Both the position numbers and the translations under genes were made by a program. Positions 4,024-44,126 of a DNA stretch of 64,000 nt are shown in pieces. The notes beneath the pieces were generated by a model, which saw only the letters and a list, made by a program, of their open reading frames with translations, did no database searches and was not told the DNA's origin. The stretch is from Sphingobacteriales bacterium. GTDB taxonomy: Bacteria > Bacteroidota > Bacteroidia > Chitinophagales > JADIYW01. Position 1 is the first letter of the stretch; each line of letters opens with the position of its first letter. Location of the stretch: contig CANHGL010000002.1 of assembly GCA_947460245.1 (NCBI GenBank), positions 3,588-67,587 of the forward strand. The letters are read 5' to 3'.

Positions 4024-4584
4024 ATGAGTACAATTTCAACAGCAATAGACATTCATCCGTCTTACCAACCGGATGGTATAGAGGGGCAGGGTTTCTTCGC
4101 AACATCACTGGATAAGGTTGTTGGTTTAGCCAGGGCTAACTCGCTTTGGCCGTTGCCATTTGCCACTTCTTGTTGTGGCATAGAGTTCATGGCTACTATG
4201 GCCTCTCATTACGATCTTGCGAGATTTGGTTCTGAGCGTTTGAGTTTCTCTCCACGCCAGGCAGACCTTTTAATGGTAATGGGTACTATTTCCAAGAAAA
4301 TGGGACCGGTACTTAGACAGGTGTATGAACAGATGGCAGAGCCTAAATGGGTATTAAGTATGGGTGCCTGTGCAAGTAGCGGTGGTATCTTTGATACTTA
4401 TAGTGTTTTACAAGGAATTGATAGAATTATTCCTGTGGATGTATATATCCCGGGTTGTCCGCCAAGACCAGAGCAGGTATTGGACGGAATATTAAAAATT
4501 CAGCACCTGGCAGAAACAGAGCAACGAAGAAGGAGAGATTCGCCAGAGTATAAGGCAATGTTGGCACAATACGGAATTGAATAA
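4024..4584 (+). CDS. nuoB: NADH-quinone oxidoreductase subunit B
   Basis: N2 cluster motifs [16 protein letters not shown] and GCPPRPE. Confidence 0.95.
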
Positions 4585-32252: not shown

Positions 32253-33815
32253 ATGGTATCAGTTTTTAAATTTGGAATAGATCATCTTACCGTAGAAATT
32301 TGTATCGGTTTATTAAATAAAAAGATAAGCGGTATTTTAGATGGTGAGGCAAGAAGTAATATTCTCCGTTCACAAGATTATGTAAATGCAATAGTAGAAA
32401 AGGATAAAACGGTATATGGTATAAATACAGGTTTTGGGATTCTATCTAATAAAAAGATTTCGAAAGAAGATACAAAAACGCTTCAGTATAAGATTCTACA
32501 AAGCCATAGTGTAGGAGTGGGCCAGCCTGTGCCTTTAGATATTACCCGCTTAATGCTAATTACTAAATTACATGCCTTGGCAAAAGGTTATTCCGGTGTC
32601 CAGTTGCCTACCTTAGAACGTTTGTTATGGCATTTTGAAAATGATGTAATTCCCGTTGTTCCGGAAAAAGGTTCAGTGGGCGCTTCAGGTGATCTGGCTC
32701 CTTTGGCACATCTCTGTTTGCCACTAATTGGTTTGGGAGAAGTCTATTACAAAGGGGAGCGTATATCCACAGACATAGTTTTCCAAAAAGAAAACCTAAA
32801 GCCTGTTGCTTTAGGAAACAAGGAAGGTTTAGCGTTGATAAATGGTACTCAGTTTATTTTATCTTATGCAGTAAAGAATGTTCAGCGTTTGCATAACTGT
32901 ATGGATGCTGCTGATATTATTGGTGCTATGACTTTAGAATCTTTACAGGGCACCAAGGCTCCATTTGATGCCAGGTTGCATGACCTAAGGCCATTTGATG
33001 GGAACAAATTAGTTGCACAACGTTTGCGATTATTGTTAGAAGATTCTGAAATTATGCATAGTCATGTAGATTGCGATAGAGTGCAAGATCCCTACAGTTT
33101 GCGATGTATGCCCCAAGTTCATGGTGCTACCCGAAATGCATGGTTGCATTTAAATCAGCTTACTGAAATTGAATTGAATTCAGTTACTGATAATCCTGTA
33201 ATCTTTGGTGAGGATGATACTATAAGTGGTGGTAATTTTCATGGACAGCCATTAGCACTCCCGCTAGATTATTGTTGTTTTGCTGCAGCGGAGTTGGGAA
33301 ATATTTCTGATAGAAGATGTTATTTATTGCTGGAAGGTAAGTATGGACTTCCGATGCTACTGATGAATGATGTTGGACTAAACAGCGGGTTTATGCTTCC
33401 GCAGTATACTACGGCTGCTTTAGTTACAGAAAATAAAACCTTATGCTTTCCGGCAAGCGCAGATAGTATTCCAACTTCTCTGGGACAAGAAGATCATGTA
33501 TCAATGGGAAGTATCAGCGGAAGGAAGTTATTTACGGTATTGGATAACTTAGAATATATTTTAGCCATTGAATTGATGGCGGCTGCCCAGGCGATTGAAT
33601 TTAGAAAGCCATTAAAAAGTTCCAGCGTGCTTGAGGCAGCGCATAGTTTTGTTAGAGAGAAGGTTTCCTTTGCAAGTGAAGACAGGATTTTTTCTGAAGA
33701 TATTAATCTGATTAAGCAAATGGTTACAGAGGGCGCATTCGTAGATGCTGTTACTCAATTTACCATTCAAAATGGCATATCATTAAATAAAGATTTTAAA
33801 GAATTTGAGTTATAA
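32253..33815 (+). CDS. hutH: Histidine ammonia-lyase
   Basis: 520 aa with the MIO-forming [15 protein letters not shown], plus YGINTGFG and QEDHVSMG. Confidence 0.95.
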
Positions 33816-33826
33816 AAAATAGAATT

Positions 33827-35494
33827 ATGTTACAAAGTTTTTTAGACAAATATGCTGCACATCCTAGCTACAGCGCACCTAGGGGGAATACGTTAAATGC
33901 TAAGTCTTGGCAAACAGAAGCACCACTGAGAATGTTATTGAATAATCTGGATGCTGAGGTTGCAGAAAATCCTGAGGAATTGGTGGTGTATGGTGGTATA
34001 GGACAGGCTGCACGCAATAAGGAATCCCTTCAAAAGATTATTAAACTTTTATTGGAGCTAGATGAAGATCACTCTTTATTAGTTCAAAGTGGTAAGCCGG
34101 TTGGTATTGTTCGCACACATCCACAGGCTCCTAGAGTATTGATTGCAAACTCCAATCTGGTGCCTAAATGGGCAACGTGGGATCATTTTTATGAGCTCAG
34201 AGAAAAGGGTTTAATGATGTATGGTCAGATGACAGCAGGCTCGTGGATATACATAGGCTCCCAGGGTATCGTTCAAGGCACCTACGAAACCTTCATGGAG
34301 TGTGGAAGACAGCATTTTAATGGAAGCCTGGAAGCTAAATTGGTAGTCACTGCAGGGTTAGGCGGTATGGGTGGTGCTCAGCCGCTTGCAGCTACAATGG
34401 CAGGGGCTACTTTTCTTGCAGCTGATATCAACCCTGTGAGTATACAAAAACGTATAGATACGAAGTACTTGGATAAAATGACCTATTCCTATGAAGAAGC
34501 TGTAAAGTGGGCATTGGACGCTAAATCTAAAGGTGAAGCTATTTCGATAGGTGTAGTGATGGATGCAGGGGATATGTTAGAGCGTTTACTACAAGATAAT
34601 ATAATTCCGGATGTGTTAACTGATCAAACGTCTGCTCATGATCCTATTAATGGTTATGTTCCTCATGGTATGTCTTTTCAGGCTGCATTAGCATTACGAA
34701 AAGCTGATCCAAATACATACAAAGAGAAGTCAATTATAAGCATGGGTAGGCATGTTCGTTTTATGCTGGAACTTATGAGTCGGGGTGCTGTAACCTTTGA
34801 TTATGGAAATAATATCCGTGCTTATGCCAAGGAGGCGGGTGTAGAAAATGCATTTGATTTCCCGGGGTTTACGCCGGCTTATATACGCTCTTTATTTTGT
34901 GAAGGAAAGGGTCCATTCCGTTGGGTAGCATTAAGTGGAGATCCTAATGATATTTATGAAACGGATAAGGCACTGATGGAATTGTTTCCTGAAAATGAAG
35001 GGATGATTAATTGGTTGCAACAGGCACAAAAAAGAATTGCATTTCAAGGACTACCTGCAAGAATTTGCTGGTTGGGATTGGGAGAGCGCGAAAAAGCTGG
35101 ATTGTTTTTTAATGAGTTGGTGCGCTCCGGAAGGGTGAAGGCTCCAATTGTTATTGGTCGTGATCATCTGGATTGTGGCAGTGTGGCAAGTCCTAACCGC
35201 GAAACCGAAGCTATGAAAGATGGGAGTGATGCCGTAAGTGATTGGACACTGTTGAATTTATTAAGTAATGCCAGTGGTGGTGCTACATGGGTGAGTTTTC
35301 ACCATGGCGGTGGTGTGGGTATGGGATATTCTCAGCATGCTGGAATGGTAGTATTAGCAGACGGCACAGATCGTGCAGCTGCATGCTTAAGCAGAGTTTT
35401 ATTTAATGATCCTGCAATGGGAGTTTTCCGTCATGCAGATGCCGGTTATGAAAAGGCAATAGCCGTAGGAAATTCATTTGGAATAAATATTTAA
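33827..35494 (+). CDS. hutU: Urocanate hydratase
   Basis: 555 aa with [25 protein letters not shown] and [18 protein letters not shown]. Confidence 0.95.
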
Positions 35495-35511
35495 TCCTGT
35501 ATTGATTAGCT

Positions 35512-36744
35512 ATGCTTATTACCAACATCCGCTATTTAGTAAATGTAAGAGAAGAAAATAATTTACTTCGGGGTAAGGCTTTGGCTGATCTTCCGATATT
35601 AGAGAATGCATGGTTGAAAATTGAAAATAATTCTATCGTAGATTATGGCTTGATCTCTTCCTTACAAGAAGCTGATTTTAAACAGAAAGTATTTGATGCC
35701 AAGCAAGCAGTTGTTTTGCCCTCTTGGTGTGATAGTCATACGCACCTTGTGTTCGCAGGCAGTAGAGAAGGAGAGTTTGTAGATAAAATCAGAGGCCTTA
35801 CTTATGAGGCCATAGCAGCAAAGGGTGGTGGTATATTAAATTCTGCAAAGTTACTGAAGGAGACTTCTGAGGAGGTGTTATTGGAGCTGGCTCAGCAAAG
35901 AATAGACCATCTGATACAATTAGGAACGGGGGCGTTGGAGATTAAAAGCGGATATGGATTATCTGTGGATGGGGAGTTGAAGATGTTGCGGGTAATTCAA
36001 CAACTTAAACACCAAAATAATATTCCTATAAAGTCAACTTTCCTTGGAGCACATGCATTTCCTGAAAGCTATAAGTCTAATCGAAAAGGATATATTGAAT
36101 TACTAAAACTTGAAATGTTGCCTAAGATTGCCAGTGAACATCTTGCGGATTATATAGATGTATTTTGTGAGGAAGGTTTCTTTACACAGCAGGAAACAGA
36201 GGAGTTGTGCGAACTGGGTAAGTCATTTGGAATAACCCCAAAAATACACGCCAATCAGTTACATATTTCCGGTGGGGTTCAGGCGGGATGTAAGGTAAGG
36301 GCATTGTCTGTAGATCATTTAGAGACTATAGGAGAAGAAGAAATTCGTTTGCTTGGAGAAGCTAATGCGCCAATTGCTACCTTATTACCAGGTGCTGCTT
36401 TCTTTTTGAGAATGCAATATCCTCCAGTAAAAAAACTAATAGAAAATAATGCGGCTATAGCTATTGCCAGCGATTATAATCCTGGTTCATCTCCATCGGG
36501 AAATATGAATTTTATGATAGCATTGGCTTGCACACAGATGCGTATGTTGCCGGAGGAAGCTATTAATGCTGCTACTATTAACGGTGCTTATGCTATGGGC
36601 GTAGAATCGCTCGTTGGTAGTATTACTCGTGGAAAACGGGCAAACCTTATTTTTACTCAAGCGATTCCTTCCATAGCCTATCTGCCTTATAGTTATGCAT
36701 CTAACCTTATCGATAAGGTGATGATTAACGGACAGTTTCAGTAA
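35512..36744 (+). CDS. hutI: Imidazolonepropionase
   Basis: 410-aa amidohydrolase with metal ligands (CDSHTHLVF, KIHANQL, ASDYNPGSSP). Confidence 0.95.
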   Translation: MLITNIRYLVNVREENNLLRGKALADLPILENAWLKIENNSIVDYGLISSLQEADFKQKVFDAKQAVVLPSWCDSHTHLVFAGSREGEFVDKIRGLTYEAIAAKGGGILNSAKLLKETSEEVLLELAQQRIDHLIQLGTGALEIKSGYGLSVDGELKMLRVIQQLKHQNNIPIKSTFLGAHAFPESYKSNRKGYIELLKLEMLPKIASEHLADYIDVFCEEGFFTQQETEELCELGKSFGITPKIHANQLHISGGVQAGCKVRALSVDHLETIGEEEIRLLGEANAPIATLLPGAAFFLRMQYPPVKKLIENNAAIAIASDYNPGSSPSGNMNFMIALACTQMRMLPEEAINAATINGAYAMGVESLVGSITRGKRANLIFTQAIPSIAYLPYSYASNLIDKVMINGQFQ

Positions 36745-36747
36745 TTT

Positions 36748-36882
36748 TTACCATTCTACTTGTATGCCACCACCATCAGGCGTAGTATGAACCGACCAAT
36801 CTAGTTTCATTTCTAGACGTTGTTCGAGTTCCTCGATGTTAAATGCTTCGTGTAGTTGTTCTTCTTTTTCTTGTGTTTTCAT
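36748..36882 (-). CDS. Candidate RiPP-type precursor peptide A (44 aa): MKTQEKEEQLHEAFNIEELEQRLEMKLDWSVHTTPDGGGIQVEW
   Basis: ATG-initiated ORF 2 nt downstream of the 652-aa gene stop, on the same strand. It is below the ORF-track size cutoff. It shares the block EELEQRLEMKLDW with the 51-aa ORF at 41198-41353; the 39-nt block differs only at 4 synonymous third positions. Confidence 0.7.
   Translation of the reverse strand: MKTQEKEEQLHEAFNIEELEQRLEMKLDWSVHTTPDGGGIQVEW
36796..36834 (-). repeat. Conserved 39-nt leader block, copy A (encodes EELEQRLEMKLDW)
   Basis: 35 of 39 nt are identical to 41261-41299. The differences are gaa/gag, cgt/cgc, cta/ctg and cta/ctg, all synonymous. Confidence 0.9.
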
Positions 36883-36884
36883 AA

Positions 36885-38843
36885 TTAATGTTTTAAGGTT
36901 AAAAATCTATTTAGTGCACTTATTACAGTGCTTGTGGTGATTATTCTGTGCAAATCTTCTATCAGTACATTTTCACCAATATCTGTTTTCTTCCATTCTG
37001 TTATGTCTTCAGGGTTTATGCAATCAGAGGCTGGAATTCTTAGCGCATAACTGGAGTCCCAGGATCCATCTGTGTTTTGTCTGTTTATTAATGCTATTGC
37101 TGATTTTTTCAGTAGGTGATACTGATCAGATGACCATTCTTTGTAATGAGATAAAGCTTTTAAGGTCATTGCAGTATATAGGATATGTTCATTACTGAAT
37201 GCATCTTTACATAAACCATTGTCCTGGATTTGTTCAAATAATAATTCAGCAGTTGATTGACATATTCTTTGCAATTCAGGATGTTGTAAGTTTTTATTGG
37301 CTTCCAAGAGGAGTGTACTGCTATATATCGGACTGGTCCACCAATAGGACTCAAATAACTGATTTGCTTTGTATTTTTTTAGGAAATAGGCTATTAATTT
37401 ATTTTTCTCTTGGGTATAGCCATCAAACTTAGATAACAACAAGAGTGTACCTGCACTTACACACAGGTGACTTTGTGTCCATCCATTAATGTTTTTTTTT
37501 TTAGGATCGTTAAGGTGATTGAGGAGTATCGTCCTATTGTTATATGTGGTAATTCCTCCATCATTTTGTTGGTAGCTTAGCACTGCATTTATTACTTCTT
37601 CTGATTTATATTGCGAGATTAAACCAAGTAGGCTGAAATTACTTGAGTCCGCATCTTCTACCCATCCTTCTATGTAGGGCCATAATATATTTTTTTTCTG
37701 ATGGAGATATTCGATTGCCTTTGGAATTATATTATTTGTTCTATGATTTTCAAACTCCTCCAGTTGATAGAGTACATATCCTGTTGTCCAGTAACCACTA
37801 AGCCATCCATTTACTGGGGAGTCTCTCCATGCACCATTACGCTCTTGTTCTTTTTGGATAAAGTTCAATCCCGATTTTATTTGCTGTAGAATACTTTTTT
37901 TTGCTGTTGGCTCATCTGCTATTTTTATTTTTTCAATAGAGCGTTTGTTTTTTATTTTTATTGATTCCAGATAAAATTCAACCTGAGTTAATACTTGTCT
38001 TATCTCTGTGATTTTCATTTCTATTACTAATTTCCATAAAGTACAGTTAATCTCTGAGCAAATCTCTGCTGCCTGAGCAAGATAGCTGATAGATTGGTTT
38101 AGTAATTTTACAGCATATCCATTTACAAACATTTTTTTCTGCAGATGCTCAATGGGTTTATTGATTAAGAGTTTATTCTTTTTTAGAAGCGTACTTAATG
38201 CAAAATTTGTCTGTTTGTTATTGTAATCTACATTCAAATCAAACAGGTCGTCATAGCATTGTAGCCCACATGAAAACAGTCTATGGGATTTTAGCAATTT
38301 TTGGTGATTATTTAAGCTGATTTTATTGAGCGTGAATAGGGAGTCTATTGCAATTTTTCCAAATGCTGATTTCCGATCAGCCAAGTTCTCAAATTCACTT
38401 TTTTTGAGGTCAAGAATAAATTGCTTGTCCGTGTAGTAAGCACTCAAATACGCTTTTTTTCTTTCTTGCCAGTATCCCCAGAATCTTTGATTATCCTGAA
38501 AAATAGAGGAGAGTATCTTTATACTTTCTTCATGATACCAATTGGATAAAATTATTTCATGTATCCTGTCTGGGTTGTCATTCTTAGTATCTAATTTTTT
38601 ATCAAGAATTAGTAAGTATTTGAAATAGAAGTATCCGGAAATATTTATTTGATTAATTTCTTTATCTCTTTTCTCAGTAAATAAAGATCCATAGCAAAAG
38701 TAAAATAGATTAGGTTCACTATTGATTTCTTTAAAGAGTAATTCTTTAATATTGCAATCTATATTTTGCTTCTTTATGTACGTTAACAGAATCTGTCGCG
38801 ATGCTTCTATATGTTTGTAGATATTATCTTTTAACATTTCCAT
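36885..38843 (-). CDS. Two-domain isoprenoid-type enzyme: N-terminal polyprenyl-synthase/ComQ-like helical region fused to a prenyltransferase/squalene-cyclase-repeat (alpha/alpha toroid) domain
   Basis: 652 aa. The N-terminal half is all-helical and carries Asp-rich motifs YLLILDKKLDTKND and FSCGLQCYDDLFD (compare the FPPS SARM GxxFQxxDDxxD). The C-terminal half has four repeats of the Q-x-x-D-G-x-W type: ERNGAWRD, QQNDGGIT, QDNGLCKD and QNTDGSWD. The function is inferred from motifs only. Confidence 0.55.
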   Translation of the reverse strand: MEMLKDNIYKHIEASRQILLTYIKKQNIDCNIKELLFKEINSEPNLFYFCYGSLFTEKRDKEINQINISGYFYFKYLLILDKKLDTKNDNPDRIHEIILSNWYHEESIKILSSIFQDNQRFWGYWQERKKAYLSAYYTDKQFILDLKKSEFENLADRKSAFGKIAIDSLFTLNKISLNNHQKLLKSHRLFSCGLQCYDDLFDLNVDYNNKQTNFALSTLLKKNKLLINKPIEHLQKKMFVNGYAVKLLNQSISYLAQAAEICSEINCTLWKLVIEMKITEIRQVLTQVEFYLESIKIKNKRSIEKIKIADEPTAKKSILQQIKSGLNFIQKEQERNGAWRDSPVNGWLSGYWTTGYVLYQLEEFENHRTNNIIPKAIEYLHQKKNILWPYIEGWVEDADSSNFSLLGLISQYKSEEVINAVLSYQQNDGGITTYNNRTILLNHLNDPKKKNINGWTQSHLCVSAGTLLLLSKFDGYTQEKNKLIAYFLKKYKANQLFESYWWTSPIYSSTLLLEANKNLQHPELQRICQSTAELLFEQIQDNGLCKDAFSNEHILYTAMTLKALSHYKEWSSDQYHLLKKSAIALINRQNTDGSWDSSYALRIPASDCINPEDITEWKKTDIGENVLIEDLHRIITTSTVISALNRFLTLKH

Positions 38844-39990
38844 ATCGTTTATTCTTTATCAGTTTTATTAATATATGAATAGTGTATCTTGCTAAAACGA
38901 TGCATAGCAATATTGTCTTTATTATATCTTGAATATTTAGAGCTGTACATTTGTCTAGTGTACCAGTGCCATAGGCTATGATATTATATAGTAATAGATT
39001 TTTGTGAATTAATAGGAAATACAAGAGATATACTAAAGCTCCTTTATTAAGTATATAATAAGCGCTTAATAATGTATTTTTTGTACTCCTCAGTTTCTTG
39101 CTAAAAAATTGAATTAAAGCCTCTTCAGAACTATTATGTAAGTTTCGATAGGAACATAAGTCATTTAATATCCAATATCCATCAGATTTGAATATTGGGA
39201 TGAGATTAAAAGTGCATTTCAATAACAGTAGTAATGCGATTGAATATGTATCGTTAAGAGATAAAAAACATCCTGTGCAGTAAGTGGAGCATAAAAACAA
39301 CGCTTCAAAATATACACCTGATATATTGACTATAATTCTTTCTCTTTTATTTAATAACCAAATTCCGGAAACATCTGAGAATGCTACTGGTATAATACCC
39401 ATGTATATTCCTATTCCTATTCCTTTGCTTTTTATACAGTAATTCCGACAAGCAGTGATATGTCCAATTTCATGTAGTAAAGTTGATCCAGTAATTAAGC
39501 AGAAATAAATCGGAATTTGATGGATGTTTATTGGGTGTATGGTCTTAGGGATGTGTAATAAATAAAATAATGTTAAAATCAAAAGTATTAGAAATACAGA
39601 TATTCCATTTCTTTTATAAAATATGGTTAAGTGTTGTATGAGAAAATTAATTTTTTCTGAGGGTATAAGGGTTGTTGCCTTCTTAATATAATTAGTTTGT
39701 GTATTTTGCTTAGTTGATTGGTCTTTATCGTTTAGTATCTTATTACCTAATTGGTTGTAAATGATATGCTTTACTTTTTCGATGCTAATATTGCGTTGGT
39801 GAATGCTGTTATAAGTATCTCGTATAGTTTTAATGCTGTTATTCCCATTAATTAAATTTATGAGAGGTAATACATTTTCAGATATACTAAGATGAAAGCT
39901 GTGCCTATTATCGAATACAATAGCTCCGTATTCCTTGTGTTGTTGGATTTTTATATCCGATCTTAGTATAGGTATCATATCTTCATACAT
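38824..39990 (-). CDS. Peptidase M50 (site-2-protease-like) membrane metalloprotease with N-terminal PqqD/RRE-like domain
   Basis: 388 aa. It has HExxH inside a TM segment (STLLHEIGHITA) and the downstream M50 motif NLIPIFKSDGYWILNDL. The N-terminal ~70 aa (IPILRSDIKIQQHKEYGAIVFDNRHSFHLSISENVLPLINLINGNNSIKTIRDTY) fits the PqqD-like peptide-binding pattern. It overlaps the next gene by 20 nt. Confidence 0.7.
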   Translation of the reverse strand: MYEDMIPILRSDIKIQQHKEYGAIVFDNRHSFHLSISENVLPLINLINGNNSIKTIRDTYNSIHQRNISIEKVKHIIYNQLGNKILNDKDQSTKQNTQTNYIKKATTLIPSEKINFLIQHLTIFYKRNGISVFLILLILTLFYLLHIPKTIHPINIHQIPIYFCLITGSTLLHEIGHITACRNYCIKSKGIGIGIYMGIIPVAFSDVSGIWLLNKRERIIVNISGVYFEALFLCSTYCTGCFLSLNDTYSIALLLLLKCTFNLIPIFKSDGYWILNDLCSYRNLHNSSEEALIQFFSKKLRSTKNTLLSAYYILNKGALVYLLYFLLIHKNLLLYNIIAYGTGTLDKCTALNIQDIIKTILLCIVLARYTIHILIKLIKNKRYGNVKR

Positions 39991-40004
39991 ATAGATAGTT
40001 TAGC

Positions 40005-41144
40005 TTATTTATAAAAATCGATAGAAGGTGTTTCTGGTATTTCGGGTTGGGAATTAATCGTTATTGATTTAAATTTTTTAAGTTGATTGTATATTGGCTG
40101 ACTCAGATCTGCGTATGCTGTTTTAGGTATTTTTAGCTTATTATCCTCTGAAATAGAGCTGGACTGAAAGATAGATTTGGCTTCAAAAGCAATTTTCTCA
40201 TTTTGAGTAGAATATTCTATTTCCATGCTGGACTTTATAGCATGTAAATACCACTTTCCTTTATAAGGCCTGAAGGATATATAAGTATTAGAAGAGATTC
40301 TTTTTTTGCTGATGAATCCACAAGTGTCATTTTTTAATAGCGTAGGCGTTTCGTTGTATTTGTTTTCGCGGAATAAACCTATAACAGCTTTTGATTGCTG
40401 GTCAATAAATAAAATAGTTTTTTGTTTGCCTTCGAGGTATAATTTATAAATCTTATAATTTCCAATGATGCTTTCAGATATATTGTATTCTTTTACCTGA
40501 TCTATGTTTTCGAGTAGAGTGCATAAAGAAGGATATAAATTACTATAGTTAAAAAGAGTATAATAAGATACATATTGTCGGTTGCTATATTTTCCATGGT
40601 TTGAATATTTTATAATATTTTTTGGAATGAATTTATTTTGTTTTCCTGAGATTGATTTTAGTGTAAAGTAATTACAGAGTTCGCCTTCACTCAGTGTTGC
40701 GCTAATAATTTGATTTTGATGTAAAATATACTCATTATAGATGCAGTTTATTTTTAATGGAGTAATACTATAATTGTTAGAGTAATTTTCTATTATTTGT
40801 TTTAAAAGTTCTTTAGGTGTTATGGATAGTATTTTTATTTCATTCAATTCATAAGCATAGGGTATTAGTTCTATATTTTTCATATCTAAGAGTTGAGTAG
40901 TAGTTATTTTTCTTGACTCGTATCCAATACTGCTAAAGACTATTGTGTCATTTGGATCGCAATCATCTATTTTAAACCTGCCATCTTTATCTGTTGTAGT
41001 TCCTGTGTTTTTTTTAACAGCGTAAATATTTACTTCAGAGAGTTTACTGTTATTTTTAGTTTGTATTACAATACCAGATATGGTAAGTGTATAGCTGTAT
41101 ATAGTTATTAGCAAAGCAATAGCTGCTAGCATAGATTTTTTCAT
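40005..41144 (-). CDS. Secreted CarboxypepD_reg-like domain protein of unknown function
   Basis: Signal or anchor MKKSMLAAIALLITIYS, then a CarboxypepD_reg-like fold signature (GIVIQTKNNSKLSEVNIYAVKKNTGTTTDKDGRFKI...IVFSSIGYESRKI). About 270 aa of beta-rich sequence with no recognised motif follow. The ORF-track N-terminal extension to 41264 overlaps precursor B and is not signal-like. Confidence 0.7.
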   Translation of the reverse strand: MKKSMLAAIALLITIYSYTLTISGIVIQTKNNSKLSEVNIYAVKKNTGTTTDKDGRFKIDDCDPNDTIVFSSIGYESRKITTTQLLDMKNIELIPYAYELNEIKILSITPKELLKQIIENYSNNYSITPLKINCIYNEYILHQNQIISATLSEGELCNYFTLKSISGKQNKFIPKNIIKYSNHGKYSNRQYVSYYTLFNYSNLYPSLCTLLENIDQVKEYNISESIIGNYKIYKLYLEGKQKTILFIDQQSKAVIGLFRENKYNETPTLLKNDTCGFISKKRISSNTYISFRPYKGKWYLHAIKSSMEIEYSTQNEKIAFEAKSIFQSSSISEDNKLKIPKTAYADLSQPIYNQLKKFKSITINSQPEIPETPSIDFYK

Positions 41145-41197
41145 AGTAAATACATTAAATAGGGCACACCGAGATTGACGGTGTGCCCATTGAGAAA

Positions 41198-41353
41198 TTA
41201 AGGATAGATGGGAACATTGTAGTTGCCATCTGTCAGAATAATCTGAGGCTGACTGGGCGCCCAATCCAGTTTCATTTCCAGGCGTTGCTCGAGTTCCTCT
41301 ACATGGAACTCATCCAGAAGATAGTCTTCCGGTCTTTCGGTTTTTTCTTTCAT
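41198..41353 (-). CDS. Candidate RiPP-type precursor peptide B (51 aa): MKEKTERPEDYLLDEFHVEELEQRLEMKLDWAPSQPQIILTDGNYNVPIYP
   Basis: ATG-initiated ORF 53 nt upstream of the CarboxypepD_reg-like gene, on the same strand. It shares the leader block with peptide A and has a divergent Cys-free C-terminal region. Confidence 0.7.
   Translation of the reverse strand: MKEKTERPEDYLLDEFHVEELEQRLEMKLDWAPSQPQIILTDGNYNVPIYP
41261..41299 (-). repeat. Conserved 39-nt leader block, copy B (encodes EELEQRLEMKLDW)
   Basis: See 36796-36834. Only synonymous differences separate the copies. Confidence 0.9.
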
Positions 41354-41921: not shown

Positions 41922-41929
41922 CGTTGCCT

Positions 41930-42622
41930 ATGGAAAATATCACTACAGAAGAAAAGAAGGTTTTTACAGATAGGAAACGAACTAACATACTAAGAAATTT
42001 AGAACAACCCGTTCTTGTTTTTTTATGTAGAATTTTACCTCGTTTCATAACTCCGGATATGCTTACAGCAACTGGTATATTGGGTTCTTTCATGGTTTTA
42101 TTAGGATTCCTAATAGCTCGTACACCTGAATTAAAAGGATTTCTTTTTTTATCAATTTTTGGATTTGCAGTGAACTGGTTCGGAGATTCTATGGATGGAC
42201 GCATTGCATACTTTAGAGAAACTCCAAGAAAATGGTATGGTTTTGCCTTGGATTGTATGATGGATTGGATGTCATTGGTGACTATAGGTATTGGCTACTA
42301 TTTTTATGTTCAGGGAGACTTTAGAATTTATGTATTTACCTTTTGTTGTGCGTATGCTTGGGCTATGCTCGTGGCTCAGATTAGGTATAAGATTACCAAT
42401 GTATATTCTATAGATTCCGGACTATTGGGCCCAACAGAGGTAAGAGTAATTATTTGTTTAGTTATCCTATCTGAATATCTATGGAGTGGTTCTATGGAGC
42501 TGTTTTCTATAGTGGTGAACATAATACTCATATTAACAAATACTATTGATACGGTTAAGTTGATAAAACTTGGTGATGAACGCGATATAAGCGAACGAAA
42601 ACAGAAGGAGGCAAGTCTGTAA
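41930..42622 (+). CDS. CDP-alcohol phosphatidyltransferase family membrane protein
   Basis: About 230 aa, polytopic. Motif region DSMDGRIAYFRETPRKWYGFALDCMMD resembles D-G-x2-A-R-x8-G-x3-D-x3-D with one extra residue. The ORF track begins at TTG 41924. Confidence 0.75.
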   Translation: MENITTEEKKVFTDRKRTNILRNLEQPVLVFLCRILPRFITPDMLTATGILGSFMVLLGFLIARTPELKGFLFLSIFGFAVNWFGDSMDGRIAYFRETPRKWYGFALDCMMDWMSLVTIGIGYYFYVQGDFRIYVFTFCCAYAWAMLVAQIRYKITNVYSIDSGLLGPTEVRVIICLVILSEYLWSGSMELFSIVVNIILILTNTIDTVKLIKLGDERDISERKQKEASL

Positions 42623-43035
42623 TGAAATTTAATCTAGAATTTAATACATTGGTTAAGGCACAGATTTCTGCATTTATTGGGGGAGTCTTTGATTATGCAG
42701 TTATGATTGCTTGTACTGAGTTACTTGCCATCTATTATGCCCGATCAATTGTAATAAGTGGTCTTCTAGGAGCCTTGGTTAACTTTACTATTAATCGCTA
42801 TTGGACATATAATTCCAATGAGCGGGGGCTCTCAGCTCAACTTACTAAGTTTTACCTGGTTGTCTTAGGGAGTATTTTACTTAAGTCTTACGGCACATAC
42901 TATGTTACAGAGGCCTTTTCTATGGATTATAGAATAACACGTTTGCTAGTTGATCTTTTTGTTTCGATTGGATTCAACTTTGTACTTCAGAAGTATTGGG
43001 TATTTCGAAAGGAGGATGTTTTACAAGCTGATTAG
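42622..43035 (+). CDS. GtrA-like family membrane protein
   Basis: 137 aa with four TM segments and GtrA-type termini (FIGGVFDYAVM..., FNFVLQKYWVFRK). Its start overlaps the upstream stop (TAATG). Confidence 0.8.
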   Translation: MKFNLEFNTLVKAQISAFIGGVFDYAVMIACTELLAIYYARSIVISGLLGALVNFTINRYWTYNSNERGLSAQLTKFYLVVLGSILLKSYGTYYVTEAFSMDYRITRLLVDLFVSIGFNFVLQKYWVFRKEDVLQAD

Positions 43036-43097
43036 CTGCTATATTTTCAGTTGTTATTTTCTTGCTTCTTTTTTGTGCTATTTAATATCTTTACTCC

Positions 43098-44126
43098 ATG
43101 CAAAATTTCATTTTTTATCAAAAGGAAAACTTTCTAGCCTTCACTAAAACAAGACAAGGTGAAAATAAATTAGGGCAGACCATACAGGCTGTTTCTAATG
43201 TTAAAAAATGGAAACAAGAGTTAAAGAGTTCTTCATCTAAGTTTGTTTTAGTAGGTATTCCAGAAGATATAGGTGTTAAGGCTAATTATGGGGTAGGAGG
43301 TGCGCATACCGCCTGGCCTTCTTTTCTTAATGCTTTTTTCAATATTCAGCAAAATCGTTTTTTGGATGGGAAAAGTATAATGCTCTTAGGTTATTTTGAT
43401 TTTTCTTCTCTGCACCTCAAGGCACAGAATAAATCAATAGAATATGTCAGAGATTTAGTGAGCGAAATAGATAAAGAGGTTACAGCTATTGTCCAGGAAA
43501 TTGTTGCGTGTGGTAAAGTTCCAATTATTATTGGGGGAGGCCATAATAACGCATATGGTAATATAAAAGGTGCAGCCCTTGGTTTGCACAGTCTGGGCAA
43601 AGTAAAAGCTAAATCTATAAATGTATTGAACCTTGATGCGCATGCAGATTTGCGTGCGCTGGAAGGTAGGCATTCAGGCAATGCTTTTTCTTACGCTATG
43701 GAGGATGGTTTTCTCAAGAAGTATGGAATGTTAGGTCTGCATGAAAGTTATATTACCGCTGAGATGGATAAGAAGATTTCTCAAAATAAACAGTTAAAAG
43801 CTATATTTTTTGAAGATATTTTTATTCGAAAAATTACTGGATATGAAGAGGCTATAGAGCAGTTATTGACTTTTACTAAGGATACCTATACGGGTATAGA
43901 GGTAGATTTAGATGTAATTGAACAAGTCTTGAGCAGCGCGCTTAGTCCTACAGGCTTGCAAACAATAGATGCAAGAAGATTTATCCATTTGGCGGCAAAA
44001 AGAGGTAAGGTTGCTTATCTACACATATGTGAAGGCGCTGCACAGTTGGACAACGGAATATCCTCCAGCACGACAGGTAAGCTGATAGCTTATTTAGTAA
44101 GTGATTTTATTAAGGCGATAAAGTAA
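43098..44126 (+). CDS. hutG: Formimidoylglutamase (arginase/ureohydrolase fold)
   Basis: 342 aa with Mn-ligand motifs IIGGGHNNAYG, LNLDAHADLR and GIEVDLDV. The assignment to the hut pathway comes from proximity to hutHUI. The family call is firmer than the substrate call. Confidence 0.65.
   Translation: MQNFIFYQKENFLAFTKTRQGENKLGQTIQAVSNVKKWKQELKSSSSKFVLVGIPEDIGVKANYGVGGAHTAWPSFLNAFFNIQQNRFLDGKSIMLLGYFDFSSLHLKAQNKSIEYVRDLVSEIDKEVTAIVQEIVACGKVPIIIGGGHNNAYGNIKGAALGLHSLGKVKAKSINVLNLDAHADLRALEGRHSGNAFSYAMEDGFLKKYGMLGLHESYITAEMDKKISQNKQLKAIFFEDIFIRKITGYEEAIEQLLTFTKDTYTGIEVDLDVIEQVLSSALSPTGLQTIDARRFIHLAAKRGKVAYLHICEGAAQLDNGISSSTTGKLIAYLVSDFIKAIK

Follow-up and report, generated by a model that had tools for sequence, protein, structure and literature searches.

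Two candidate tryptophan-bearing precursor peptides in a Bacteroidota operon encoding a predicted prenyltransferase-cyclase fusion enzyme

The DNA analysed here was a 64,000-nucleotide stretch of contig CANHGL010000002.1 from a Sphingobacteriales bacterium (the window), in which a five-gene operon was found on the minus strand in the order A1, CR, protease, PC and A2 (Table 1). The two small genes, A1 and A2, bracket the operon and encode the paralogous peptides MKEKTERPEDYLLDEFHVEELEQRLEMKLDWAPSQPQIILTDGNYNVPIYP and MKTQEKEEQLHEAFNIEELEQRLEMKLDWSVHTTPDGGGIQVEW, respectively, the latter from an ATG at 36882. The A2 sequence, as translated in an earlier note on this DNA, was confirmed. That note had described the A2 open reading frame (ORF) as unlisted; it was absent from the reader's own list but is present in the ORF list and in public gene calls, where it is predicted after the enzyme gene, and the A2 and A1 sequences both have identical records in public protein collections (NCBI/ENA). 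As had also been stated, A2 fills nearly the whole gap up to the convergent hutI gene, since its ATG lies 2 nt past the stop of PC and its end lies 3 nt short of the hutI stop. Searches of Pfam and NCBIfam returned no model that matched either peptide.

Table 1. Positions of the operon features in the window (aa, amino acids; nt, nucleotides). The slash in a peptide marks the conserved Trp and is not a proven cleavage site.
Feature	Position	Strand	Description
A2 candidate precursor peptide gene	36748..36882	minus	44 aa, ATG start; supported by open reading frame, public entry and orthologue
A2 peptide, split at conserved Trp			MKTQEKEEQLHEAFNIEELEQRLEMKLDW / SVHTTPDGGGIQVEW
A2 conserved leader block	36796..36834	minus	EELEQRLEMKLDW; its final codon (36798-36796) encodes Trp29, predicted to accept the prenyl group
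PC	36885..38843	minus	652 aa, predicted bifunctional maturase, fusion of P and C domains
PC, P domain	aa ~1-310 (nt 38843-37914)	minus	trans-isoprenyl-diphosphate-synthase-like; D81xxxD85, Q195-x-x-D198-D199-x-x-D202-x-x-x-D206
PC, C domain	aa ~315-651	minus	MstE-like class II terpene cyclase; E-D397-A-D399
Protease	38824..39990	minus	388 aa, M50-type (site-2-protease-like) membrane metalloprotease fused to a RiPP recognition element (RRE); shares 20 nt with the PC start
CR	40005..41144	minus	379 aa, secreted/lipoprotein-like, N-terminal CarboxypepD_reg-like domain
Hairpin	41162..41188	minus	GC-rich, 10 bp (8 G-C), 10 nt past the A1 stop
A1 candidate precursor peptide gene	41198..41353	minus	51 aa; paralogue of A2
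A1 peptide, split at conserved Trp			MKEKTERPEDYLLDEFHVEELEQRLEMKLDW / APSQPQIILTDGNYNVPIYP
A1 conserved leader block	41261..41299	minus	paralogous to 36796-36834

The leader blocks of A2 and A1 aligned in register, with 35 of 39 nucleotides identical, and formed part of a single 87-nt direct repeat (36793-36879 and 41258-41344; 70% identity). Codon comparison reproduced the earlier finding that the four differences between the blocks (GAA/GAG, CGT/CGC, CTA/CTG and CTA/CTG, A2 first) are all synonymous. By the Nei-Gojobori method there were four changes at 7.0 synonymous sites and none at 32.0 non-synonymous sites; the resulting synonymous rate (dS) of about 1.1 is near saturation, and the neutral probability that all four changes would be synonymous was about 0.001. 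No chance match to the block with three or fewer mismatches was obtained in 100 shuffles. Outside the block the two genes had diverged, as the note had reported, with a non-synonymous rate (dN) of 0.57 in the N-terminal leader and a saturated core.

Related loci were fetched with the enzyme alone as bait, which yielded 160 loci, nearly all from Bacteroidota (among them Flavobacterium, Tenacibaculum, Kordia, Aquimarina, Pedobacter, Hymenobacter, Chitinophaga, Spirosoma, Aquirufa, Marivirga, Chryseolinea and Capnocytophaga); counts are given over 161 sources. The closest relatives of the window locus were metagenome-assembled genomes of Bacteroidia/Bacteroidota. Precursor ORFs were gathered by regular expression and then with a profile hidden Markov model, and 184 small homologous ORFs (173 unique) were recovered from 129 of the 161 sources, with one to six per locus; the sources that lacked one were mostly short contigs. 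All 182 precursor ORFs in oriented loci lay on the enzyme strand. The family consensus was an acidic leader of 20-35 residues ending in F-x-(V/I)-E-E-L-E-x-R-(L/Y)-E-(M/F/N), and A1 and A2 share the form F-x-V/I-E-E-L-E-x-R-L-E-M, followed by Trp 2-3 residues on and by a variable core. This Trp lay 2-6 residues past the R-x-E motif in 176 of the 184 peptides (2-3 residues in 167), and no Trp was found upstream of it in 165 unique leaders. Counted from the Trp, the core had a median length of 24 residues and was rich in Gly, Ser and Thr and hypervariable in sequence.

The codons of this family pointed to selection on the peptide. The block occurred in 158 distinct nucleotide versions, and in these both codon families of each amino acid (CTN and TTR, CGN and AGR) were used at the invariant Leu and Arg positions, with an entropy of 1.85-1.95 bits at the third position and 0 at the second. 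When all six frames of the 161 sources were scanned, 103 of the 106 occurrences of the motif fell in short ORFs that begin with Met and lie on the strand of the enzyme; the other three comprised one that was cut at a contig end and two chance matches in long ORFs. The same six-frame scan revealed no decayed copies, that is, none in which a frameshift or stop accompanied a retained nucleotide block, which was the outcome named in the note as fatal to its claim. The dN/dS ratio over homologous small ORFs, the check that the note had proposed, came to 0.18 in the leader across 16 independent orthologous pairs, and to 0.32 in their cores.

Direct orthologues of the window genes gave similar values. 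The A2 orthologue in locus L162 (80% identical, and 82% at the nucleotide level), which has the C-terminus of PC upstream and a convergent hutI gene downstream, gave a dN/dS of 0.165 overall and 0.03 in the core, where six synonymous changes stood against one non-synonymous change. For A1 and its orthologue in L163 the value was 0.147, and the A1 orthologues P0044 and P0045 had the same ...PIYP C-terminus. Because the amino acids stay fixed while codons switch family, the ORFs remain in frame and dN/dS is low, these comparisons strongly support the view that A2 and A1 are translated and that purifying selection acts on the peptide and not on an element of DNA or RNA, as had been proposed. The generic features of precursors of peptides that are made on ribosomes and modified after translation (RiPPs), namely a small ORF beside a maturase gene, a leader that is conserved while the core varies, and purifying selection, were all present.

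Further patterns were observed among the precursors. The core ended in Phe in 53 of 165 unique sequences, and many cores showed a beta-hairpin-like alternation with a central Gly or Asp-Gly turn, as in WSVHTT-PDGGG-IQVEW. Tandem arrays of three to six near-identical precursor genes were seen at L008:6722-7800, L013:7048-7830, L015:7179-7745 and L014:11341-11977, for example in Tenacibaculum and Flavobacterium; one array member (...EKLEERLEMASWQCDVLEPGEVDCNF) carries two Cys per core. An extra A1-type precursor (...EELEQRLEMKMDWQQNGSVILPGGDPYPIVP) lay upstream of the A1 orthologue both at L163:68-289 and, as a 48-aa ORF at 4276-4422, on JGI contig 3300056388 (12,857 nt). No third precursor equivalent to it was found in the window.

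The PC protein matched Pfam family PF13243 and was modelled by AlphaFold2 (AF2) with a predicted local distance difference test score (pLDDT) of 90 and a predicted template modelling score (pTM) of 0.84. Foldseek aligned its C domain with the class II terpene cyclase MstE at a template modelling score (TM) of 0.83-0.86 (E 8e-16; about 21% identity), and the match was also detected by sequence with phmmer (E 4e-13). The catalytic D109 of MstE, the second Asp of its GDAD motif, aligned with the E-D397-A-D399 motif of PC, in which D397 was invariant and D399 was at least 90% conserved among 24 homologues. The P domain was all-helical and was matched by Foldseek to an octaprenyl-diphosphate synthase, a member of the trans-isoprenyl-diphosphate-synthase group (trans-IDS; 3wjk, TM ~0.71), and also to MoeN5. 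Residues D81, D85, Q195, D198, D199, D202 and D206 were invariant in the 24 homologues and likewise in a second PC subfamily. When the P-domain profile was compared with the PDB, the sole match was 8hdl, annotated as a 'trans-prenyltransferase'; it was weak and fell exactly on FQLxDDxxD.

An exhaustive profile search placed 708 representatives in the PC family at 50% identity and E<=1e-30, which ruled out the impression of a very rare family given by a word-indexed search with 29 matches. One representative, P0088, has 1035 aa and two matched stretches, and may be a PC protein fused to a further domain. The second subfamily was represented by a 609-aa ORF of Capnocytophaga bilenii (L077:7959-9788) and about 30 further loci (for example L065, L073, L112, L118-L135, L142 and L145), many of whose contigs may be host-associated. 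Its P domain was ~33% identical to that of the window, and its C half was SQHop_cyclase_C-like (PF13243, E 1e-14) and could not be aligned to the window C domain by BLAST. Precursors with ...EELEKRYEMGW... were observed at these loci.

Sixty loci had first been scored as encoding the P domain alone, and the length of the 51 ORFs that were intact at the 3' end was examined. Of these, 31 were 447-677 aa long, and L077 shows the divergent cyclase half; a stand-alone P domain was therefore ruled out for most of the 60 loci. Shorter ORFs of 278-322 aa (L066, L070, L071 and L075) and of 72-142 aa (L150-L160) were also seen and are possible stand-alone P genes or fragments. These could be P-only enzymes, pseudogenes or assembly frameshifts; the L070 ORF has an in-frame stop.

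The first ribosomal peptides with cyclised terpenes were reported in 2024. According to the account of Hubrich et al. (Chem 10:3224, 2024) given in PMC13290415, the maturase ChrPC joins a trans-IDS-like P domain, as in ComQ, PalQ and Ord1, to an MstE-like C domain; the P domain uses C10-C20 donors for prenylation of an internal Trp, and the prenyl group is cyclised by the C domain. A conserved Gln that directly precedes the second Asp-rich motif is the hallmark of Trp recognition in this group of enzymes (PMC13290415). The fusion maturases named in PMC13290415 are two, ChrPC and NctPC, and the latter is described there (after Hubrich et al. 2024) as a bifunctional P-C enzyme with an ABBA-fold P domain, in which Trp geranylgeranylation is followed by cyclisation. 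The window PC resembles ChrPC in the fusion of a trans-IDS-like P domain to an MstE-like C domain, in the internal Trp of its candidate substrates and in the Asp-rich motifs with an upstream Gln. At the level of sequence and fold, the P-C fusion, the Gln before the second Asp motif, the cyclase acid and the precursor Trp were thus all found. The cluster is best regarded as an uncharacterised addition to the ChrPC-type class, a likeness of architecture and of hallmark residues as described and not of alignment with ChrPC itself. NctPC shares the P-C fusion with an MstE-like cyclase, but its P domain is an ABBA barrel of the cyanobactin type, whereas that of the window is all-helical and trans-IDS-like.

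Other systems resemble parts of the cluster. In ComQ/ComX of Bacillus and PalQ/PalX of Paenibacillus, both in Firmicutes, a trans-IDS-like enzyme prenylates a small ribosomal peptide at a Trp, which is recognised by a Gln together with a pseudo-SARM; unlike the window operon, these systems have no cyclase domain and no RRE-M50 protease, their leader is a different one, and PalQ requires a terminal Trp. Of ComX and PalX, only ComX is known as a pheromone, and it is sensed by ComP. The operon did not correspond to a ComQ/ComX system, since its enzyme is fused to a cyclase and the annotated genes up to about 6 kb away in each direction include no two-component genes, with no search aimed at a ComP-like sensor. 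MstE, the merosterolic acid synthase of Scytonema (PDB 6sbb-6sbg), has the single-domain class II cyclase fold and the catalytic Asp motif; it differs in that it stands alone and cyclises a prenylated benzoate. The proteases of the daptide and YydH/LiaK systems are M50-like HExxH membrane proteases within RiPP operons, as is the protease of the window, which differs from them in its fusion to an N-terminal RRE-like domain.

A homologue of the protease was encoded on the PC strand in 112 of the 112 loci scored. Its H173-E174-x-x-H177 (HExxH) motif was invariant, and the membrane part was matched by Foldseek to the site-2 proteases 3b4r and SpoIVFB. The Pfam M50 score of 26.3 bits fell just below the cutoff of 27.2. 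Partial matches to two NCBIfam models, daptide_HExxH (77.6 bits, cutoff 300; E 1e-21) and YydH/LiaK (66.4 bits, cutoff 225; E 3e-18), scored far below the equivalog cutoffs, and the protease therefore represents a distinct family, related to these but not a member of either.

The earlier note had referred to a PqqD-like domain, a designation that was supported by the fold and not by Pfam. No Pfam match to PqqD (PF05402) was obtained for residues 1-112 up to an E-value of 10; by Foldseek, residues 13-85 of the 388-aa protein matched known RREs, including a lasso-peptide B1 protein with bound leader (6jx3_B, TM 0.66), TbiB1 (0.65) and PqqD (0.60), with probabilities of 0.93-1.0 and weak E-values, and also the RREs of SuiB, SkfB, TigE and LynD. 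In the AF2 model (overall pLDDT 73, which is moderate; 67-88 in the RRE region) this unit had a beta3-alpha3 order, with strands at 13-18, 22-27 and 32-36 and helices at 41-44, 53-64 and 70-85. The model supports the assignment of the N-terminus as an RRE, and the protein is predicted to be the leader peptidase. An amphipathic helix in the leader block, which the note had raised as a check and not as part of its claim, was not supported: the helical hydrophobic moment (Eisenberg) was 0.28 for A2 and 0.17 for A1, no higher than the shuffle means of 0.27-0.28 and not significant. The beta-periodic moment was higher, at 0.48-0.53, and is compatible with strand-type docking of the leader on the RRE.

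Additional genes were observed next to the M50 gene in two related loci. In the cluster of the closest relative, a NUDIX-family gene (by Pfam) lies directly 3' of it (L001:3705-4217) and by eye resembles a type-1 isopentenyl-diphosphate isomerase; if it is one, the cluster would be tied to isoprenoid supply. A 299-aa MauE/DoxX-like membrane protein is encoded after the M50 gene at L002:5138-6037, and the core of the L002 precursor is Cys-rich (WSKDGCTGVAACSYPAK). Together these two features hint at an extra disulfide or thiol step in some family members.

Overall, it is quite probable that A2 and A1 are the two precursor peptides of an operon that makes ribosomal peptides bearing a cyclised isoprenoid on Trp. 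In the pathway that follows, the prenylation of Trp, the length of the donor, the cyclisation, the site of cleavage, the sequence of steps and the role of the product are inferred. A1 and A2 would be translated, A2 probably by translational coupling to PC, because its ATG lies so close behind the PC stop. The conserved leader motif would act as a recognition sequence that brings the Trp 2-3 residues on into the P-domain active site. As a ComQ/PalQ/ChrPC-type prenyltransferase, the P domain would use its Asp-rich motifs to bind a C10-C20 prenyl diphosphate and would alkylate the indole of Trp29 in A2 or Trp31 in A1, with Q195, just before the second of these motifs, aiding recognition of the indole. 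The E-D-A-D acid of the MstE-like C domain would then protonate the distal double bond so that the prenyl chain is cyclised. Finally, the membrane protease may grip the leader via its N-terminal RRE and cut it off, a step that is probably coupled to release at the membrane.

Several points weigh against this interpretation. Eight of the 184 peptides had no Trp within six residues of the motif. Sequence similarity of the P domain to solved prenyltransferases was marginal (E 0.038), and neither Pfam nor NCBIfam assigned it to a family. Residues Y157 and R337 of MstE were not conserved in PC; R337, which binds substrate in MstE and is changed in the R337A mutant structure, had no counterpart, which fits a different substrate, and its loss is plausibly that of a substrate-specific residue. 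The chemistry of prenylation and cyclisation is read from sequence and fold, and the tie to ChrPC, made through a published description, and any identity of its precursor leader with that found here are presumptive. In addition, the sole recognisable RRE lies on the membrane protease, while the leader must reach the soluble PC.

As to function, the products may be ComX-like terpenylated peptide signals or membrane-anchored effectors in Bacteroidota, with one PC enzyme and two lineage-conserved core types, a proposal that we regard with considerable doubt. The very strong constraint on the A2 core would fit a ligand with a specific receptor. Antimicrobial RiPPs typically have diversifying cores, unlike that of A2. 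We know of no established peptide pheromone system in Bacteroidota.

Among the alternatives, the one that survives best is that PC only prenylates Trp, with the cyclase-like domain serving as a scaffold or in binding, or acting on another substrate, so that the product would be linear, a ComX-type prenyl-Trp peptide. The unconserved MstE residues, the very divergent C domain of the second subfamily and the few loci that may encode P alone are consistent with this, as is the report that all characterised trans-IDS-like peptide prenyltransferases other than ChrPC work without a cyclase (PMC13290415). However, the EDAD motif is conserved family-wide, the C domain has the fold of MstE, and the characterised fusion ChrPC is described as cyclising its product (via PMC13290415); we consider prenylation without cyclisation unlikely.

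It is very unlikely that the peptides serve the RRE-M50 protease alone, as cleaved signals or bacteriocin-like products, while PC makes an unrelated meroterpenoid in the manner of MstE. The action of MstE on a prenylated benzoate with no peptide (from PDB titles), and the location of the only recognisable leader-binding domain on the protease, would accord with such a division. Against it, the precursors were recovered from most sources with PC alone as bait, the Trp after the leader is near-invariant, the P domain has an invariant Gln for Trp recognition, and the operon contains no genes for aromatic-acid biosynthesis. The possibility that the small ORFs encode unmodified proteins merely linked to the operon is given slightly less weight still. 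Small conserved ORFs can play such roles, as regulators or antitoxins, and nothing specific favours this here; the conserved leader with a hypervariable core, the arrays of up to six genes per locus and the linkage to an RRE-protease are instead the anatomy of RiPP precursors. A nucleotide-level element (a protein-binding site, RNA motif or recombination remnant) with incidental ORFs, which a direct repeat at both operon ends could have signified as a boundary or regulatory repeat, was ruled out by the codon analysis, with its wholly synonymous differences at near-saturated dS, codon-family switching, in-frame copies in short Met-ORFs and dN/dS far below 1, and retains a negligible probability.

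With the precursor interpretation retained, the window adds to a recently described class, and to no new category of biology, a cluster, as yet uncharacterised, whose two substrates differ from each other and are well conserved. The leader F-x-V-E-E-L-E-x-R-[LY]-E followed by Trp (mostly at +2/+3) provides a usable definition of the precursor family across more than 120 Bacteroidota loci, a family for which Pfam and NCBIfam have no model. This definition and the large enzyme family could aid genome mining and the engineering of substrate scope in peptide terpenylation.

Most related loci were ordered A-(CR)-PC-M50 or PC-M50-A, unlike the A1-CR-M50-PC-A2 order of the window. The JGI contig had the order A-CR-M50-PC-A, both flanking gene sets and a small ORF in the gap between PC and hutI, and its PC protein was only 48% identical to that of the window; this makes the arrangement a stable feature of the lineage, not an artefact of assembly. 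An A2-type core, WSVHTTP(D/N)GGGIQVEW, and an A1-type core, ...DG...PIYP, were both kept on this contig and on other fragments, and a single PC enzyme appears to serve two distinct core types.

A homologue of CR was present in 45 related loci, and its position was shared in L002 and the JGI contig. The ATG at 41144 is the likelier start of CR, because a 419-aa ORF with a TTG start (40005-41264) would overlap A1 and the hairpin; from this ATG the protein begins MKKSMLAAIALLITIYS..., which is signal-peptide-like. After A2, a candidate terminator was rejected, since only a weak structure was seen (dG -10.5, z -2.3) and it was not conserved in L162. The hairpin after A1 had a folding free energy (dG) of -21.1 kcal/mol and a z-score of -6.75, and none of 200 shuffles was equally stable. 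Hairpins also followed precursor stops in four relatives (L163:599-621, L002:662-700, L021:6219-6263 and L046:11287-11325), and the five together had a dG of -19 to -23 kcal/mol (z -4.6 to -7.2), with position kept and differing sequences. Conservation of position rather than sequence would be expected of a device that controls how much precursor is made relative to enzyme. These hairpins are probably partial terminators or attenuators, or mRNA stabilisers, that would set this ratio, a function proposed from what is generally known of RiPP operons.

The operon is flanked on one side by hutH-hutU-hutI and on the other by genes for a CDP-alcohol phosphatidyltransferase, a GtrA-like protein and an arginase-family (hutG-like) protein. 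Its GC content was low, at 0.28-0.30, compared with 0.36-0.42 in the flanks (32253-36744 and 41924-44126). The stretch from 36748 to 41353 was thus seen as a low-GC island that divides the histidine-utilisation gene set, with hutHUI on one side and the hutG-like gene on the other.

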